Assembly (NCBI GenBank): GCA_964342815.1
Contig: CAYFHS010000055.1
Span: forward strand, 1-11,600
Length of the DNA stretch: 11,600 nt
Source: an uncultured archaeon
Lineage (GTDB): Archaea; Thermoplasmatota; Penumbrarchaeia; JASLWR01
Reading direction: 5' to 3'
Of the stretch, positions 73 to 10,753 are shown piece by piece; position 1 is the first letter of the stretch, and every line of letters starts with the position of its first letter. Position numbers and translations under genes: made by a program. A model generated the notes under the pieces. It had not been told where the DNA came from and did no database searches. It saw only the letters and a list, made by a program, of their open reading frames with translations.

Positions 73-3000
73 TCACGTAAAAAAGTTCACACCCATACCC
101 ACTACTTTGGAATATCTAACGTCATTGATCTTATCAGCAAATCTCTTCTCCGAGATCAGATACTTGGCCTTGCTTCGACAATCCTCGTGGAGGATCCCGA
201 CATGTCCTAATTTGTCTCGCTTGAAAATACACAAACCGTCGATGATTGCCCGGTACTGTCCAGATTTGTCTGAGTTGTGGTAGTTTTCACAGCATCGAGT
301 CTTTTTCCCTCCAACCGTCTTGCGGGAATGGTGCCAATTCATGCATTTCATGCATTTGGGTTGGTTCATGGCAAGTTTATATCCCTTGGATTTGAGCTCG
401 GGGCGCTCAAAAATGTTGTTCCAGCACTGCCTCTTGATATCCTTGGGTTGCATGTGCTCTGTGAATTTAGCGTGATAGCTGAAAATGGTGTCCAAGGTCT
501 CGCTTGTGGTGTAATAACTCTGGTTAAAGGTAAACTCGAACGTATCATTGCCGTTAAGTATCATTTTCCCGCCAGGCATGCGTTCCCAGACATCCTCATT
601 ATCTTGAATCTTAAGAATGGGAGGTAATGGCATGGACATCAGTCCAATCTTTTTCACACTCAAGTACCGACGAACTCGATAGTACCACTTGAGACATTCT
701 AGCTCGTACGTCGCACACTCGGGTCCAAGGTAGTCCCACGCGTTTGGGTCACAGCAGTCCAAGGGTTTTGTAAATTTAAAGGTTGAGTACTGCTTTCGTC
801 GACTCACATCTCCAATCCCCCCATCCGCTGCATCACTCGTCTTGCTGTTACAAACCACGACCATGGGACTGGTGTTGTTGAACTTGGCGTTCCGACTTTG
901 CTGCTTCTGATTCGTTTGCATCTGATTCCCGGTGACTAACTTTTTAAAGTTGGCCACCCCGATGTTGTCAATGAAACTGGATGGAGCATCTTCGCAGAAA
1001 ATGATGCCGTCGTGCTTGGACAACGACTCCCAGGCAAAGGTGTAACTCTCCCGGGCGTTATCCAGGGCATGGCGGTCATCAAATTTGTAGAAATATTTCA
1101 CCGTCATCCGAATATACATTGACTTCCCAGAGCCTGGAGCTCCATCCAGAAACATTGCCAGCTCCCAGTTGTCCTCCTGAATGGCAAAGTGGAGTCGACC
1201 TGTACAGGCCATGAGTAGCTCCTGGGTGCTAAAGGGGCAGTGTGGAGCGATTATCCATTCGGGATCGTAGGGCACGGCACCAAGGAGGTCCGATTTTTCG
1301 TCATCCTCATCAAGCAACTGCTTGGCCTCGTGTTTCCCCAGCTGCTTCTCCAGACCAAGACCTTTGGCATTCTCCTCCGTGACTTTGATCTTTCGATCCG
1401 AGGGGAAGTGGAAAACCAGAAATTTCGGAATGTGCTTTAATGATTGGTACACAATATGTTCATACTTGCAGTCACGCCAAAAGAGGCAGTAGGTGTAGCT
1501 GTCAATTGGTGGGGCCTCCCCCACATGGAATTGCAAGATGGGTTCATTTGGTGTATTTGATTCAGCACCATAAAAAACGGGTGTCTTAATGTCCAGGTAA
1601 CCGTCTTGATATAAGATAAAGTTACGCGACGTGTGTTTGAAGAGGGGAAACAAGTCAAAGGCCTTGTTGTCCAGATGTTTGACAATCTTCTCATCCACAC
1701 CAGGTGCTGATCCTTGGGCCAAGGATGCAATCGCCAAGGTCACAAACTCTTCTATTTTCATGCAGGGAACCATTGCCCCTGGCACACGTTCATGGAGGCG
1801 ATAGACAAACCCTCGGCCCTTGATACGTCGGTAGCCACGAAAGTAGGCACACCGCAGAACATGGCTGAGGCAGCTCCGATAGGCGGCATCGCCAGTAGGA
1901 TTTCGAAGCGTTTTTGTGCAGAGAATGAATGGAAAGGAGTCGCGGTTAGCACCGACGGTAAGATCAGCCTTGGTCTGAAACTGCAAGTACTCATTTTGGT
2001 CATCCACATCTAATGACATTGCTGATGATTCCTCCAGGGCTTCCATTGATACATCCATTGATGCCTGCACCTCCAGGGCTTCCATTGATACATCCATTAA
2101 CATTGGCTTACTCGGATGGTCCTCCAATAAAACCTGATCCTCCAATATAGCGGTCTGAATTCCGTTCATATCTGTTATTACGTCCAAGGCAAGATACTGA
2201 AGTACTTCCTTGGGCAACATCGCGGTTAAGAGATCACGGAGTTGTCGTCTGAGCCCACCTGATTTACAATCCAGTACAACGTCCATAAGTGAAATGACTT
2301 GTTCGGCAAATTCGGATTCCATCGGTAGGTACTGAAGCTGATTGAATAGAGCATAACGAATCGGGGTTTCCTTGATGTCAAGGACGTCCGGACCCGACCC
2401 GAATATGTTTTCGCGGGTGGACTCGGATTTTTCCTCATCACACTTGGATTTTTCCACATCATATTCAACATCAAACTCTACAAATCGCCGCTGAACGGCA
2501 GGTACGAGACCAATCCGGAGCTTGGCTAGGGTGAAGGGATCTTTGTTGATGTAGTTACGCAAAAGTTCCAAGGGGGAAACTTTTCTTCCTTTGTGTGCTC
2601 TTAACAAGTCCGTCATCACCTTGGTGGCTTGGCTGATGATGTCTTGCAGATCTGTGGCCATTAGGTCATTAATATCGGAATTTGATTTGAGGTCATTAAT
2701 ATCGGAATTTGATTTGAGGTCGTCGATGATGGAATTGATGGAATATGGCTCGTGGTCTAAACAACGACGTTTTTTGTCTCGTTCCCCCATATTTTCGACC
2801 ACATGTTCCACGACATCTTCGCTCCTGTGCCTTTTCAAGAAACGAGTGAACTTGGCTTGCTGCCTACGTTTCCAATTATCGTACTTGGCTCCATCACCCA
2901 GCCAGATGTCTTTCAAGTGCCAAAAGGCATTCCATTTAGCTTCCTTTGGAATTACATCAACGAGAAAGTCGTGAGAGTTGTACTCCCACAGAGCTAGCAA

Positions 3001-3909
3001 GTCAAAATACAGTTGAATAAGCCTGACATCCTCGGCTCTACATAACGCTCCATACAACGAATTGTACATGCTCTGGATGCAATATTCACGATTGGGGCAG
3101 AGGGGCATGTTAGAAATCAGCTCCTTGATTTCCATGACTTTTATAAACACCTCGCAGGTATCACCCGTCATGTTGAACCAATCACGGTCATCTCTCCTTT
3201 CAATAATTTCCATGAAGGATATTTCCGTGTTATCATCAGTTGTATTGCCAGTACAAAACCAGCTGGTGTCTGGGTCCATCAGGGCGGTTTCAAGGTTCAG
3301 TGGTGCACCACCATTAACACTTTTAGGAGCACGAATGGCTTCCGCCAACACCTTGGCCGCCAAGATTTGTATGGCTTGGTCGTGTTCGATACCCAACCAT
3401 CTCCAGAACTTGTCGGCCTGAATTTGTCTACCATCGACCACATACATGTAGTCCTTGTCCGGAGTGAAGGAATAGTTGATTCCTTCTTCTTTAAAAACAA
3501 TGTCATTATGAATCATGGCCACGAGATTAAAAATTTCATCGCCGTACAAGGTTTTCTTAGCTTTTGAGTTTTGATCAAAGTAATTAAACCAAGTATCCGT
3601 CGTATGAATAGCGTTGAAAATATAACCTGGGTATGGTAGGTCGACCCTATGGTCCACTGGAATGGATGGGAGAGAGCCGGAAAGATAATCACATGCTCGC
3701 TTTAGCTCATCATGGGTAATATCCCCCAAGTCATCTTCAACTCCCTCCTCCTTATCCAACAGGGTTTTGACAGCCTCGTAGATCTCTTGATAGTCCTTAA
3801 TTTCTTTCTTGATGAGACATGGTTTATCCTCCACCATCAAACGTTTTTGCAAGGTGGTAATTAAACTCAGAACGTAGCATTTCATGCCTTTCTCATGATC
3901 TAGATTCAA
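73..3909 (-). CDS. D5-like superfamily-3 (SF3) helicase of NCLDV/phycodnavirus type, with long N-terminal extension and C-terminal Cys/His motif
   Basis: Uninterrupted 1,278-codon ORF. Walker A GAPGSGKS (1120-1143), Walker B-like GIIFCED (988-1008), motif C VVVCN (847-861), arginine-finger-like SRR. The segments GRLHFAIQEDNWELAMFLDG, YFRGYRRIKG...KIEEFV and FPLFKHTSRNFILYQDG resemble phycodnavirus D5-like helicases as I recall them. The track start at 3909 is TTG; the first ATG is at 3885. Confidence 0.88.
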   Translation of the reverse strand: MNLDHEKGMKCYVLSLITTLQKRLMVEDKPCLIKKEIKDYQEIYEAVKTLLDKEEGVEDDLGDITHDELKRACDYLSGSLPSIPVDHRVDLPYPGYIFNAIHTTDTWFNYFDQNSKAKKTLYGDEIFNLVAMIHNDIVFKEEGINYSFTPDKDYMYVVDGRQIQADKFWRWLGIEHDQAIQILAAKVLAEAIRAPKSVNGGAPLNLETALMDPDTSWFCTGNTTDDNTEISFMEIIERRDDRDWFNMTGDTCEVFIKVMEIKELISNMPLCPNREYCIQSMYNSLYGALCRAEDVRLIQLYFDLLALWEYNSHDFLVDVIPKEAKWNAFWHLKDIWLGDGAKYDNWKRRQQAKFTRFLKRHRSEDVVEHVVENMGERDKKRRCLDHEPYSINSIIDDLKSNSDINDLKSNSDINDLMATDLQDIISQATKVMTDLLRAHKGRKVSPLELLRNYINKDPFTLAKLRIGLVPAVQRRFVEFDVEYDVEKSKCDEEKSESTRENIFGSGPDVLDIKETPIRYALFNQLQYLPMESEFAEQVISLMDVVLDCKSGGLRRQLRDLLTAMLPKEVLQYLALDVITDMNGIQTAILEDQVLLEDHPSKPMLMDVSMEALEVQASMDVSMEALEESSAMSLDVDDQNEYLQFQTKADLTVGANRDSFPFILCTKTLRNPTGDAAYRSCLSHVLRCAYFRGYRRIKGRGFVYRLHERVPGAMVPCMKIEEFVTLAIASLAQGSAPGVDEKIVKHLDNKAFDLFPLFKHTSRNFILYQDGYLDIKTPVFYGAESNTPNEPILQFHVGEAPPIDSYTYCLFWRDCKYEHIVYQSLKHIPKFLVFHFPSDRKIKVTEENAKGLGLEKQLGKHEAKQLLDEDDEKSDLLGAVPYDPEWIIAPHCPFSTQELLMACTGRLHFAIQEDNWELAMFLDGAPGSGKSMYIRMTVKYFYKFDDRHALDNARESYTFAWESLSKHDGIIFCEDAPSSFIDNIGVANFKKLVTGNQMQTNQKQQSRNAKFNNTSPMVVVCNSKTSDAADGGIGDVSRRKQYSTFKFTKPLDCCDPNAWDYLGPECATYELECLKWYYRVRRYLSVKKIGLMSMPLPPILKIQDNEDVWERMPGGKMILNGNDTFEFTFNQSYYTTSETLDTIFSYHAKFTEHMQPKDIKRQCWNNIFERPELKSKGYKLAMNQPKCMKCMNWHHSRKTVGGKKTRCCENYHNSDKSGQYRAIIDGLCIFKRDKLGHVGILHEDCRSKAKYLISEKRFADKINDVRYSKVVGMGVNFFT
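2031..2098. repeat. In-frame 39-bp-period duplication in the helicase ORF (MDVSMEALE x2)
   Basis: CCTCCAGGGCTTCCATTGATACATCCATT (29 bp) is identical at 2031-2059 and 2070-2098. Confidence 0.95.
2663..2721. repeat. In-frame 27-bp tandem duplication in the helicase ORF (DLKSNSDIN x2)
   Basis: AGGTCATTAATATCGGAATTTGATTTG at 2663-2689 and 2690-2716, plus AGGTC. Confidence 0.95.
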
Positions 3910-4322
3910 CCAGCTTCAGACTTGCTTGGTGGGTATAGGCTCCGAAAATTCCTTCTTGGGTTGTAAAAGGCCGTCTTTATCTGGTGTGATTGAGAAGGAG
4001 CCTGAATGATTCGCTTTGCCTGGAAGACCGCAAGTTGATAGAGCTTCTCCTTGGGGACGTCTCCTCTCCAGAACAAGTGTTTCTTGTAACTCCGCACACA
4101 GTCGCGGAATATCGAGGATTTCGATAACTCAGTCCTCTCAGGCAAGATGACGGGGGAATTCGCTTGGGGTGGGGTAATCTCCGTGCTCCAACGACGTTGA
4201 GCCTCGGCCAGGTCGATTTCCAAGGTCGTACCCCATTCACCCCAATAGTCATACATCAAGTTGGAGATGTATTCGATGTCGGACTTGGAGTTGAGAAACT
4301 TGAGATGAGCGGTGATTGACAT
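3906..4322 (-). CDS. Hypothetical protein, 138 aa
   Basis: ATG preceded by an AT-rich leader (..AAATCCAAAATG), globular-looking composition, co-oriented with and abutting the helicase. No family recognised. Confidence 0.7.
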   Translation of the reverse strand: MSITAHLKFLNSKSDIEYISNLMYDYWGEWGTTLEIDLAEAQRRWSTEITPPQANSPVILPERTELSKSSIFRDCVRSYKKHLFWRGDVPKEKLYQLAVFQAKRIIQAPSQSHQIKTAFYNPRRNFRSLYPPSKSEAG

Positions 4323-4350
4323 TTTGGATTTCTAATTTTATTATACCATG

Positions 4351-4371
4351 ATTCCTAAATTATTTAGGAAT
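4351..4371. terminator. Perfect inverted repeat ATTCCTAAAT-T-ATTTAGGAAT, candidate hairpin 3'-end/polyadenylation signal
   Basis: 10-bp arms with a 1-nt centre, about 20 nt downstream of the minus-strand stop at 4393-4395. The function is inferred from the Mimiviridae hairpin polyadenylation rule. Confidence 0.45.
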
Positions 4372-4383
4372 GGGTTCAATTAA

Positions 4384-4391
4384 TCAATTTT
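4384..4391 (-). promoter_or_regulatory. AAAATTGA motif (Mimiviridae-type early promoter)
   Basis: Plus strand TCAATTTT reads AAAATTGA on the minus strand, about 60 nt upstream of the ATG at 4322. A near-copy TTAATTGA follows immediately. A chance match in AT-rich DNA is possible. Confidence 0.5.
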
Positions 4392-4392
4392 T

Positions 4393-4581
4393 TTACGCAC
4401 TTGGGATCCCTAATATGCAACAATAATACAACGTCCAATTTCCAAAACACGGGTCCCAAACGTATCCAAACTCAATGAGTCCCTGCCAGAGCAGGCACAA
4501 AACCTGTTCCAAGTACAAGCATTCACTTGGGGTTTTATAGTCGGAAGTTTGCAAAGTTCCGAGTGGCTCCGGTCGAGCCAT
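4393..4581 (-). pseudogene. Possible N-terminal remnant of an amino-(N6A/N4C) DNA methyltransferase
   Basis: The 62-aa ORF contains DYKTP...VWDPCFGN, resembling the Y-x-T-P motif X and D-P-x-x-G-x-G motif I. Removing one T (AATTGGA to AATGGA) gives DPCFGNG. No catalytic NPPY/DPPY motif follows. Confidence 0.3.
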
Positions 4582-5359: not shown

Positions 5360-5977
5360 TCACGACACCCGATCGTACTGTATACCAAGCTTCTTCCAGA
5401 ACCCTTCCGATCCTTCCGCTATATTCCCAACACTGTTGATATTGAGGTACCGTACAAGCTTCGCCGCAATTCCGCACCCGCGAGCCCGTTCGTGGGTCCA
5501 AAGAATGGTGATATCATGGTTCTCTGGGTCATACACCATGAAGGTTGGCAACAAGCACCTAGTCAAGCACACATCACCTCTCATACTCTTCACAAACACT
5601 TTGTCCCTGTGCCCCTTTCGTAGAGAGCAGAATTGATGGTAAAACTCGTCGTCTTCCAACGAGAATCGGACGCTGTAGAGATTCCCCTCACGATAGGCTG
5701 CTGCAATGCAGTCCAGATCGGTGTAGAAGGGGTCTCTGCTGTGAACAAGCTCGTGGTAGATTGCGGCAAAGTCCTTTCCAGAAGTGATATTGAACACCTC
5801 GCCCTTCTCTTCCACTAGCGTTTTGAATTCACCTGGAGCAAACAATTCCTCCTCCTCCTCCTCCTCCTCCTCCTTGTTCCTCACGGTAGCCCCACGTATT
5901 ATCACGTTGGGGCACAACGAACATTTCCGGCTGGCGTCATCCAGGGTTCTGGCTCGTTTGGGAGCGGACTCCGCCAT
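5360..5977 (-). CDS. GNAT-family N-acetyltransferase, about 205 aa
   Basis: C-terminal ITILWTHERARGCGIA (acetyl-CoA-binding motif A, R-x-x-G-x-A) and GFWKKLG (motif B). The likely start is the ATG at 5977 (ACAATGG context, MAESAPKRAR with a basic NLS-like patch), not the track start at 6142. Confidence 0.8.
   Translation of the reverse strand: MAESAPKRARTLDDASRKCSLCPNVIIRGATVRNKEEEEEEEEELFAPGEFKTLVEEKGEVFNITSGKDFAAIYHELVHSRDPFYTDLDCIAAAYREGNLYSVRFSLEDDEFYHQFCSLRKGHRDKVFVKSMRGDVCLTRCLLPTFMVYDPENHDITILWTHERARGCGIAAKLVRYLNINSVGNIAEGSEGFWKKLGIQYDRVS
5847..5873. repeat. (TCC)9 trinucleotide repeat encoding poly-Glu in the GNAT protein
   Basis: Translates as KEEEEEEEEELF on the minus strand. Confidence 0.95.
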
Positions 5978-5982
5978 TGTAA

Positions 5983-6663
5983 CTGCAAAGGGAGGAAGAA
6001 CGCATTGGTTGGATAGAAACATGACGAGGGGGAATAAGCCAGACGGAGACGAAAACGTCGTGTGAAATAGCCACGAAAAAGGAGTCACATGAAGGGAAGT
6101 GGACGGATTTACACAAATACGAATACACACAATGTCGTTCATTGTGAGTCATGTAAGATAAAAACCAGCGCATGAAAGGCACCGCAACCCAACAGAGACG
6201 TGTAACACATACCCACACGTGTAACACATATGCACCCACACACACATATAATATACACACACATATGCCACATATGCACACACATGCACACATAATATGC
6301 ACACATAATAATTATGAACACACACATGCACACACATACACACACCTTAAACACAGTTACAGTCCAGCCTGGGGCGTGCTTGAGAACGCTCGTGTCGCCT
6401 TTCAGCGGGTTTGCTGTCCAATCCACGCAACACTGTTCGCAACGTCACAAAGCAGAACACTCACATGAGGGGAGGGGCTAGAGAAAGGAGGAGATGCGCG
6501 CAGAAGAAACAGCGCATATGTGAGCAGAGGAAGTAATTGTGATAGCACAGCCGCGAGTGAGTGACCGTTACCCACACCAACCGGTTACACACTGACCGAT
6601 AATATTATATCCTGATGTCGATGCTTTTCAGGGAGCGCTGAGGAGCGAAGTCACACAACTCAC
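5983..6663 (-). other. Predicted 5'-UTR spliceosomal intron of the GNAT gene
   Basis: Acceptor TTCTTCCTCCCTTTGCAG ends 5 nt before the ATG and is strong. Donor AAG|GTGAGT at 6663 matches consensus, but its pairing with this acceptor is inferred. Confidence 0.55.
6198..6345. repeat. Compound (CA)/(TA)/(CATG) alternating purine-pyrimidine microsatellite
   Basis: About 150 bp of ACACAC/ATAT/ATGCAC motifs, including ACGTGTAACACATA twice. It generates several spurious low-complexity ORFs. Confidence 0.9.
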
Positions 6664-7820: not shown

Positions 7821-8623
7821 ATGGCGTTTGGTGAAGAGGTGGTAGCGAAGTGGAAGAGGGAAGGAAGGACGGAGATCGACATGCGCCACAAGCGACGCAG
7901 TGCTCTGCCGGGGAGCATTGGTTGCCTGGTGAATCTAATAACCCTCAAGTTGAGCTACAACCGACTCGAGAGACTCCCCCGAGAGAATCGGGAATCTGAT
8001 CAACCTGACAACCCTCCACGCCAGTCACAACCGACTCCATGCACTGCCCAAGGGTATCGGCAATCTGGTCAACCTAGAGGATCTTACGTTAAACAACAAC
8101 CAACTCAATGAACTGCCAAAGAACATCGGGAATCTGACAAGCCTGACAATTCTCATGTTACACTACAACCAACTCAAGGAACTCCCTGAGAGCATCGGGA
8201 ATCTGATCAACCTGACAACCCTCAACGTCAGCCACAACCGACTCAATGAACTCCCCGAGAGCATCGGCAGTTTAACAAACCTGACGGAGCTCGCACTATT
8301 TCAAAGCCAACCCGATGAACCATCTGCCAACAACAACAGTTTCGTGGTCAATGTTAGGGATCTCTATTTGTTTCGTACCCCGTTTACTTCCCTGCCGGCA
8401 ACCATCCGTTTGCTGCCAATAAGAACACTCCCGCGCAACATCTTTATCCCACCCCTCTACTGGCATCCCAAATACCACCTGCGCTTCCCACGACACTTCC
8501 GACGGATGGTGTTCGCCTTTATGGTCTGCAACCGGCGAGAGTTGTTGTCGTATCTTCCGATGGAAATGATGTGGTGTATTCCTGGAATTCCTGGACTATC
8601 AGACCCTCCAGGCTTTGGAGTAA
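7821..8623 (+). pseudogene. Leucine-rich-repeat protein (about 7 x 23-aa repeats) with C-terminal SOCS/F-box-like motif; two +1 frameshifts
   Basis: Start CAACATGG. Removing one C from CCCCC (7976-7980) gives LPERIGNLINLTTLHASHNRLHALPKGIGNLVNLEDLTLNNNQLNELPKNIGNLTSLTILMLHYNQL, which joins the two track ORFs. Removing one C at 8581-8582 gives LPMEMMWCILEFLDYQTLQALE* (TAA 8621-8623). Restored length is about 266 aa. Confidence 0.85.
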
Positions 8624-9248
8624 CACATGGATGTGTGCACGAAAGGTTTGAACGTAGCGGAACTCCAAGTGTGTCTTAGAAATTCTATTAGCTCAGCGTA
8701 ACATATCAAGTGTTGTTCATTTCTTAAAGTTTACTCTCCTGTGGTATGGAATTCCTGTAACCTTTAACTCCCCTTCATGGGAAGCAACTTAGGTCTAGAT
8801 TTGGAAGTTCTACATCCTCCCAGTGCAACAAATATGCTTGTGGGGAACGAGATGCATCGGACGCTGGGAAGCTCTTCCGTAAGAAATGCGTGGAAGTGTA
8901 GAATCTACAAGCCAGACAACAAGCTGTTTCATTTCTGTTTCATGTGTTCATGTGTATGATTGTATTCACGTGCACTTGACATGCGCGCGAAGTGCCCGAT
9001 AAATACACAGCGGGATTTGATGTTTTCTTTCCACCAAGAACGTGGTGAAGTGCACAGCAATTAGAATTCTACGGAAGTACTGCAACAAGAAATAGTTGCT
9101 GAATTCTACAGCGCTACCTCCACAACTCTCCACAGCAGAACAAATCGCCGACGGTAGGATCGAGAGCACATCACAATTAGAACATGGGAACACCTACCAG
9201 AGACATCTCAAAACCTAGCCACCAGTAGTCACAGACATCTTCCCAGCA

Positions 9249-9987: not shown

Positions 9988-10753
9988 TTATATCGTCGAC
10001 ATCACAGCTTCCACTGCACATACTTCGTAGACCCGCTCCAAGACGCCATGGCTGCAGTAGGAGGGCACACGAGCCTCGGCAGGGACGGTGTAGGTTTGAC
10101 TTCTTCCTCCACTTAGCGCCAGGGGGTATGTCGTAATCACTCGTGTTCCGATATGCAACTCGGCTTCCAGCTTGCGCAGTATTCGGCTTGTCAACGAACC
10201 TTCCCCTCGCCCAAACACCACGTTGTTGATGTCGAAAATATAATGACCGTGAAAGGCCTCAAGTCCAGGTCCAGCCCACCCCCGTGCTGAAGGTGCAAGG
10301 GGGCAGCTTGTATCTGCCTTCTCCCGCAAACGTACTTGTAACTGCCCATCAGGTGCATGTGCGTCCAAGCACAATCTCCACCCCTGCCACACTGTGGAAG
10401 GTTGGGCAGCAGAACGCAAGCTGCAAGCAGAGACGACCCACGCCACAGCCAAAGTCCAGGAAGCGACCCGGTGGTGCTGTTACGGATGACATGGATAACA
10501 ACAAATCCCGCGCCAACCAATGGGCAAAGGCGTCGGACACCTCTCCGTACTCCAGTCCCTGGTAGGGAGGTACTTGCCAGACCTGCACGTCACCATACAG
10601 GTCCTGTCCACACCTCCGCAGCAAGTCATTGACCATCCCCTCAAGCTCGTCCAGTGGCAAGGGAGTGCGCGTGCACAACTGACGGCACACCCTATTAGTC
10701 CCTTGCATCCTGCCCTTCGTCCTCCGCCCGATACGCACCTTCTTGGGTGCCAT
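9988..10753 (-). pseudogene. DOT1-like (histone H3K79-type) class I SAM methyltransferase, disrupted by frameshifts
   Basis: YGE (10541-10549), motif I FLDFGCGVG (10436-10462), post-I GVEI. After a shift near 10360 comes LHLQHGGGLDLDLRPFTVI (motif II-like). After a shift at 10231-10244 comes INNVVFG...LHIGTRVITTYPL, matching the DOT1 VIFxNN and GxRIVS pattern. Restored length is about 255 aa. The methyltransferase fold is firm; the DOT1 subfamily call is less so. Confidence 0.72.

Follow-up and report, generated by a model that had tools for sequence, protein, structure and literature searches.

A complete D5-class helicase with a long orphan N-terminus on an apparently mis-binned contig of an archaeal metagenome-assembled genome

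How does a helicase of the giant-virus type come to be encoded in an archaeal genome assembly, and what stands ahead of it in the place where a primase might be expected? No replicative helicases are commoner among large DNA viruses and many mobile elements than the D5-like ones, and the module preceding such a helicase tells how the element starts DNA synthesis. The window analyzed here is an entire contig (C55; 11,600 nucleotides [nt]) of a 4.35-Mb metagenome-assembled genome (MAG), on whose minus strand an open frame runs from position 3909 to 73. An initial annotation, made from the sequence alone, described the product of this frame as a D5-like module preceded by about 670 residues of unexplained sequence without a visible primase, an observation that the present analysis confirms. 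The gene, of 1,270 residues, is intact, and its helicase module is complete and carries every ATPase motif; the helicase belongs to a familiar family, within which it represents a new and highly divergent clade. The N-terminus is a genuine orphan, though not a conserved one.

The helicase module and its clade

Within the protein, Pfam recognizes only DUF5906, the superfamily 3 (SF3) core of D5/P4-type proteins, at residues 922-1023 (E 5.7e-5, under the gathering score); no sequence match to D5_N or Pox_D5 is found. An exhaustive phmmer search with residues 1-1200 against 1.84 billion representative proteins returned 49 matches, all confined to residues ~655-1200. Residues 640-1278, aligned with the matching parts of 36 phmmer matches, were modeled with AlphaFold2 (AF2), yielding a predicted local distance difference test score (pLDDT) of 77.5 and a predicted template modeling score (pTM) of 0.76. 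The overall fold of the modeled module matches solved D5-class helicases, the SaPI5 primase-helicase, monkeypox virus (MPXV) E5, vaccinia D5 323-785 and African swine fever virus (ASFV) C962R leading the Foldseek comparison with the PDB (E 1e-9 to 1e-7). Among the first seven Foldseek matches in BFVD, all named proteins (two of the seven are listed without a name) come from giant viruses, in the order Aureococcus anophagefferens virus D5 (E 3e-23), Pandoravirus, Tetraselmis virus 1, Sylvanvirus and Medusavirus; phage proteins are listed from about E 6e-15. A profile of 37 helicase sequences has as its best PDB match the SaPI5 primase-helicase (7ola, E 4e-16), and also matches NrS-1 (1.6e-10) and papillomavirus E1 (about 2e-9).

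In the model, residues ~670-1240 appear as a D5N-type collar, an AAA+ core, a C-terminal domain and a Cys-rich hairpin. The collar lies directly N-terminal to the ATPase (residues 670-832; model residues 31-193), is modeled with a pLDDT mostly above 90, and aligns to D5/E5 from residue 323 and to C962R from ~407. All SF3 motifs are present: Walker A (G923-APGSGK929-S), Walker B (IIFCE973-D974), motif C (N1021) and an arginine finger (R1037-R1038). K929, E973-D974, N1021 and R1037/R1038 are invariant in the clade alignments, and the K, N and R remain so across 37 relatives. Within the clade, C1186, C1189 and C1207 of the hairpin are conserved, and the hairpin region is a probable zinc ribbon.

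The AF2 model, the fold matches and the intact ATPase motifs bear out the assignment of the module to the D5 type, while the ranking in BFVD, with giant-virus D5 proteins at the top and phage proteins only from ~6e-15, agrees with the label ‘giant-virus-type’ in the initial annotation. The boundary drawn there near nt 1900 was well placed, as the modeled residues ~670-1240 correspond to nt ~190-1902, and shorter homologues of the kind it cited do exist, at 675-830 residues. Residues are numbered from the TTG at 3909, with M9 as the likely start; public gene calls at the locus give 1268-1270 residues, and no annotation was found on any full-length orthologue in these calls, as had been supposed. 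The gene and its product are organized as follows (window coordinates; aa, residues; NLS, nuclear localization signal).

73-3885, minus strand: complete coding sequence, 1270 aa, with ATG at 3885-3883 and stop codon at 75-73; the open frame reaches a TTG at 3909
2770-3885, minus strand: N-terminal region 1 (aa 9-380), aromatic-rich, of globular-like composition, no homologue, with a basic NLS-like end; allele-variable patches aa 198-209 and 266-321 sit within it
2663-2736, minus strand: 27-nt tandem repeat encoding the linker DLKSNSDIN x2 (aa ~397-414)
2110-2667, minus strand: N-terminal region 2 (aa 415-600), no homologue
1990-2109, minus strand: acidic repeat linker MDVSMEALE x2 (aa ~601-640), site of a 1-nt insertion in allele L006
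1414-1902, minus strand: D5N-like collar domain (aa ~670-832), pLDDT mostly >90
1246-1413, minus strand: charged insertion loop (aa ~833-888), low model confidence
730-1245, minus strand: SF3 AAA+ helicase core (aa ~889-1060), with Walker A G923-S930 (K929), Walker B E973-D974, N1021 and R1037-R1038
385-729, minus strand: C-terminal helical/beta domain after the ATPase, as modeled and as in D5/E5/C962R (aa ~1061-1175)
190-384, minus strand: Cys-rich beta-hairpin with C1186, C1189 and C1206/C1207 (aa ~1176-1240), clade-conserved
76-189, minus strand: C-terminal tail (aa 1241-1278), low model confidence; aa 1260-1278 vary between haplotypes

The nearest relatives are three proteins, P0003 (975 aa), P0004 (1171 aa) and P0005 (1256 aa), which share 23-26% identity with the helicase over residues ~655 to ~1218, Cys motif included. 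In a tree of the helicase region (a quick tree with long branches), these four clade members form one branch (SH-aLRT 99), separate from the groups bearing AEP (archaeo-eukaryotic primase)/PriCT or polymerase-like N-domains. The clade is small and fast-evolving. Homologue searches with the whole protein, a four-sequence alignment and a conserved-region alignment (‘longer’ class) recovered only the near-identical P0002, and a search of viral, genome and metagenome contigs with the clade alignment gave no confirmed relative.

The N-terminal region

Residues 9-660 match nothing in Pfam (E<=1), PHROGs or NCBIfam, nor any PDB sequence (E<=10); ESM Atlas feature searches with residues 1-400 and 415-672 gave no usable match, and the exhaustive phmmer search found nothing for the N-terminal region beyond copies at least 98% identical. 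In particular, no AEP, PriCT, Toprim or polymerase profile matches the region in Pfam, NCBIfam or PHROGs; AEP domains are marked by motifs I (DxD/E), II (sxH) and III (hD). The scan that detected PriCT_2 in the N-termini of 3 of 39 relatives (up to 1.3e-11) found none in the helicase protein. Compared with residues 1-660 by hhalign, the AEP_C962R/PriCT-2-bearing group scores a probability of 0.1% and a polymerase-like N-domain profile (A5) 1.4%, both against a single-sequence target that gives such comparisons little power.

By composition, two segments resemble folded protein, residues ~80-360 (aromatic-rich) and ~420-600. The DLKSNSDIN x2 repeat lies between them, the acidic MDVSMEALE x2 repeat comes after the second, and a basic NLS-like stretch covers residues ~345-382. 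Low-complexity sequence makes up 23% of the N-terminal region, as compared with 35-40% in P0003/P0004/P0005. Single-sequence AF2 prediction of residues 9-660 gave a model (pLDDT 34, pTM 0.20) too poor for fold searches, in which a mostly helical chain with almost no beta structure is a hint only.

The N-termini of all four clade members, 415-700 aa long, lack Pfam matches. In Smith-Waterman comparisons against shuffled sequences, those of P0004 and P0005 resemble each other over the first ~100 aa (z 20), while all other pairs score between -1.0 and 3.2, and no collinear conserved motifs were seen among them in the clade alignment; a conserved enzyme at such a distance would normally leave such motifs. 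One string, ‘GALCRxxD’, common to residues 288-294 and to P0004/P0005 near residue 55, was rejected as a chance resemblance (hhalign E 0.12, probability 0.5%), and is further weakened as a shared motif by a Cys-to-Gly change in another allele.

These results divide the claims made earlier about this region. That no primase is visible stands, the AEP/PriCT signal being undetectable in the Pfam, NCBIfam and PHROG scans. The proposal that the first 350 residues constitute a new conserved origin-binding or priming domain is unsupported: the N-termini of P0003/P0004/P0005 are unalignable with this one (z -0.1 to 3.2), hhalign probabilities do not exceed 1.4%, and the patches at residues 198-209 and 266-321 vary almost only non-synonymously.

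Some more distant relatives carry standard modules, including AEP_C962R in P0017 and PriCT-2 in P0020, P0042 and one more protein. Sixteen other metagenomic D5-like helicase relatives (among P0006-P0048; alignment A5) have in common an N-domain of ~300 aa that has no Pfam or PDB sequence match, and whose consensus contains an Arg hairpin, a D-I-D segment and an F-D-G segment (GRLY ... YYxDIDMVNAxP ... FDGLxV). TV-Pol enzymes are characterized by a conserved Arg hairpin, two palm aspartates and an RxxxK fingers motif (PMC2579912); judged by its consensus, the A5 domain would fit a TV-Pol/PolA-like minimal polymerase.

The helicase module superposes on residues 323-785 of poxvirus D5/monkeypox E5 (PDB 8apl, 8hwa-h, 8xj6-8, 9ilz), with a sequence identity of 11-14%, but poxvirus D5 carries an AEP primase of ~320 aa and a zinc linker where 660 unrelated residues are found here, and the clade-specific Cys-rich hairpin near the C-terminus is additional to D5/E5. 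The best fold matches, the giant-virus D5 proteins (A. anophagefferens virus A0A076FGI0, Tetraselmis virus 1 A0A2P0VN23, Pandoravirus S4W0L4; E 3e-23 to 1e-21), reach template modeling (TM) scores of 0.56-0.59 by query over ~600-650 aligned columns at 13-16% identity; with 675-830 aa in total, they have at most ~100-250 residues before the collar, and they derive from free viral genomes rather than a host chromosome. The highest VIA-align Z scores, 19.8 and 18.1, belong to the SaPI5 primase-helicase (7ola/7om0) and ASFV C962R (8iqi, 9ivf), both of which possess a recognizable N-terminal AEP-type primase, whereas none is recognizable in the helicase protein. Papillomavirus E1 and polyomavirus large T antigen are nuclear SF3 initiators that have no primase and borrow that of the host; in contrast to these, the collar here is D5N-type, not E1-type, and the N-terminus shows no sign of an HUH-derived origin-binding domain. 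Among D5-like helicases, swapping of the N-terminal module is a well-established theme (PMC2579912, PMC11161782), exemplified by the PolA(TV-Pol)-S3H and AEP-S3H fusions of virophages and polinton-like viruses. Those fusions fall on branches separate from the helicase clade, and in the hhalign comparison the N-terminus described here shows no similarity to the possibly TV-Pol-like A5 domain.

Allelic variation and genomic setting

Across six alleles of the gene, 70 of 3,814 aligned columns vary, all of them within five blocks (aa 198-209; 266-321; 615-616; 1235-1241; 1260-1278). The blocks combine differently from allele to allele, which suggests recombination or gene conversion from unseen diverged paralogues, or assembly mosaics. 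Since block 266-321 shows 19 codons with non-synonymous and 2 with synonymous changes, radical replacements included, at least this part of the N-terminus appears not to be under tight constraint, and the variation in the N-terminal patches argues for a fast-evolving region, not a conserved enzyme. Outside the five blocks there is zero variation between alleles, so selection there is not measurable. In allele L006 (10001-13811; Tara Oceans), a 1-nt insertion at codon ~616, within the acidic repeat linker, breaks the gene in two, giving an N-terminal product of 628 aa and a helicase product of 660 aa; the insertion may be a real polymorphism or an assembly error.

When the MAG is cut into 336 chunks of the contig's size, none deviates as strongly in tetranucleotide composition as the contig itself does. 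The share covered by open frames of 150 aa or more is 56% in the contig (34% beyond the helicase), as opposed to a median of 90.5% for the MAG chunks, and the contig carries CA-rich microsatellites, a 69-nt leucine-rich repeat (LRR) array with frame breaks and a methyltransferase fragment. Five further assemblies of marine metagenomes, of which at least three stem from Tara Oceans, contain the locus with the same flanks (the LRR gene, a 260-aa open reading frame [ORF] and a 138-aa ORF). Because of its deviating tetranucleotide composition, its low open-frame cover, its microsatellites and LRR repeats and the same flanks in five marine contigs, the contig looks like eukaryotic-like nuclear DNA mis-binned into the archaeal MAG, not like archaeal DNA, a point that the initial annotation missed; if it is mis-binned, ‘eukaryote-like’ genes on it are not to be credited to the archaeon.

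Neither viral hallmark genes (capsid, packaging ATPase, polymerase, integrase) nor element ends were found in the window, in 3.8 kb downstream or in ~10 kb upstream; longer contigs show only minisatellite DNA and DNA resembling miniature inverted-repeat transposable elements (MITEs) in these 3.8 kb, and no terminal inverted repeats were found around the gene in a 15.7-kb allele. Other features of the window, including the positions at which the alleles vary, are the following.

3285-3320, 2948-3114 and 76-132, helicase gene: variable stretches (alleles L002, L006-L009)
1-68, no strand assigned: 13-nt tandem array CCATCACTTGGAA x5.2, 4 nt past the helicase stop codon, haplotype-specific
3906-4322, minus strand: 138-aa ORF without a homologue, whose end lies 20 nt ahead of the helicase ATG; every allele checked has it in identical form
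5360-6142, minus strand: intact 260-aa ORF, identical in all alleles, with a poly-Glu run and a weak C-terminal GNAT-like match (E 0.02)
7821-8679, plus strand: LRR gene over two frames (69-nt repeats), only the first of which gives a weak Pfam match
9988-10753, minus strand: S-adenosylmethionine (SAM)-methyltransferase-like fragment beginning MAPKKVRIGRR, with a DOT1 match of E 0.013

Both the window and L007 terminate inside the perfect 13-nt array, an assembly break. In L002 (9681-10259), ~2 copies of the 13-nt unit and other short repeats are followed by arrays of GATCAAGGATGACAA-like units. The array was considered as the terminus of an element and rejected, given that other haplotypes have ~2 copies and continue past them into repeat DNA of an ordinary kind; its behavior is that of a minisatellite. 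The 20-nt gap between the 138-aa ORF and the helicase ATG is a tight spacing of the kind seen in viruses. Upstream of that ORF (4323-4395) lie one AAAATTGA word and a palindrome with 10-bp arms; as a Mimivirus-type promoter, the single AAAATTGA word constitutes no evidence, at least one match being present in 44% of shuffled sequences. No similarity was found between the 138-aa and 260-aa ORFs of the window and the neighbors of the relatives.

Origin and role of the gene

On the most economical reading, the helicase lineage belongs to integrating virus-like elements of protists, and the window contains a solitary endogenised copy. This reading is supported because relatives sit beside SET and rve integrase genes. 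P0004 and P0005 are encoded in compact, syntenic, GC-rich islands (L003:1-14909, L005:1-9059; ENA ERZ795105) with the gene order 316-aa ORF, SET-domain protein, small ORFs, helicase and large antisense ORFs, and one of the two islands also has an rve integrase; the islands may represent an undescribed integrating element. Except for SET and rve, their proteins have no Pfam match. The islands also encode an 803-aa protein with Cys/His clusters and a possible 2-oxoglutarate (2OG)-oxygenase-like HxD segment, and a 686-aa protein with ‘RHKATGRH ... HSLQTRGWIY’ segments like tyrosine-recombinase motifs.

We favor, at somewhat less than an even chance, an endogenised D5-class helicase of such an element, with a non-catalytic, fast-evolving N-terminus for targeting or recruitment and with priming left to the host. 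An integrating virus-like element would have left a copy of its helicase in the nuclear genome of an uncultured marine eukaryote. By analogy with D5/E5, and judging from fold and motifs, the helicase would assemble as a hexamer on DNA via its collar and unwind DNA with ATP; the C-terminal domain would bind DNA, as family knowledge and the solved D5/E5 structures suggest (PMC4889955). The N-terminal 660 residues, probably not a primase but a lineage-specific, rapidly changing and mostly helical region, would comprise two folded-looking segments joined by repeat linkers, together with the NLS-like basic stretch, and would serve targeting, either recognizing the element's own DNA or recruiting host replication factors. 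The element would borrow the host primase in the nucleus, much as papillomavirus E1 and polyomavirus large T antigen do. SF3 helicases are often fused to origin-binding, not priming, domains, and D5-like N-terminal modules displace one another (PMC4889955, PMC2579912).

Several points weigh against an endogenised helicase with a non-catalytic N-terminus. Element ends, a capsid gene and an integrase were not found beside it in the window or in the 3.8 kb downstream, so that the link to mobile elements rests on distant relatives, and one of the six alleles is frameshifted, which may mean that the gene is dispensable. The profile tests, made on a single-sequence target, have little power, and the only model of residues 9-660, at pLDDT 34, makes the helical content a mere hint. 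AEP and TV-Pol domains, moreover, are notoriously divergent, and the polymerase domain of Sputnik V13 was once misassigned (PMC2579912).

The last point touches the rival view that the N-terminal region conceals a divergent or new primase or polymerase, which would put the protein among true primase-helicases such as D5, ASFV C962R and the virophage PolA-S3H fusions. Most multidomain D5-like helicases do bear an N-terminal AEP, DnaG or TV-Pol module (PMC2579912, PMC4889955), distant relatives of this one have an AEP_C962R, PriCT-2 or polymerase-like domain, and the region both exceeds the size needed for a linker and has, at residues 80-360 and 420-600, a folded-domain composition. We nevertheless consider this unlikely, given that no AEP, PriCT, Toprim or polymerase profile matches and hhalign probabilities stay at or below 1.4%, that collinear conserved motifs in common with P0003, P0004 and P0005 are absent, that part of the region tolerates radical allelic changes, and that the low-confidence model is nearly devoid of beta structure. 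It is likewise improbable that a viral insertion has recently left the gene behind as a functionless relic, its frame open only for want of time to decay. In five of the six alleles, the 3.8-kb frame stays open and no ATPase motif is damaged, and the 138-aa and 260-aa neighbors are intact and identical in every allele. The solitary position of the gene, with no other viral genes, ends or integrase nearby, the broken or frame-split appearance of the adjacent LRR and methyltransferase genes, the frameshift in one allele and the mostly non-synonymous changes in the variable patches would all suit a relic; with no variation outside five short patches, however, selection cannot be judged either way. 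Very unlikely, in our view, is domestication of the helicase by the host for a non-replicative role, such as defense against related viruses, with the N-terminus as a sensor or interaction surface under diversifying selection. Such a role would accord with an intact frame, a chromosomal position fixed across samples of different assemblies, and hypervariable, mainly non-synonymous patches restricted to the N-terminal region and the C-terminal tail, but gene conversion from paralogues, or mosaics made in assembly, would account for these patches just as well, no orthologue was found in other species, and there is no link to known defense genes.

The clade combines a complete giant-virus-type helicase with long, mutually dissimilar N-termini in place of the primase, suggesting that its elements use host priming, like papillomaviruses and polyomaviruses, or a module not yet recognized. 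That this N-terminus or its counterparts in the clade hold an unseen priming, polymerase or origin-melting domain is decidedly unlikely; if true, AEP, DnaG and TV-Pol would be joined by a fourth type of module fusible to the front of a D5-like helicase, and the protein would define the replication protein of a group of integrating DNA elements, as yet undescribed, from marine protists. Viral-derived DNA of apparently eukaryotic provenance would also contaminate this archaeal MAG, which matters for anyone interpreting ‘eukaryote-like’ genes there.

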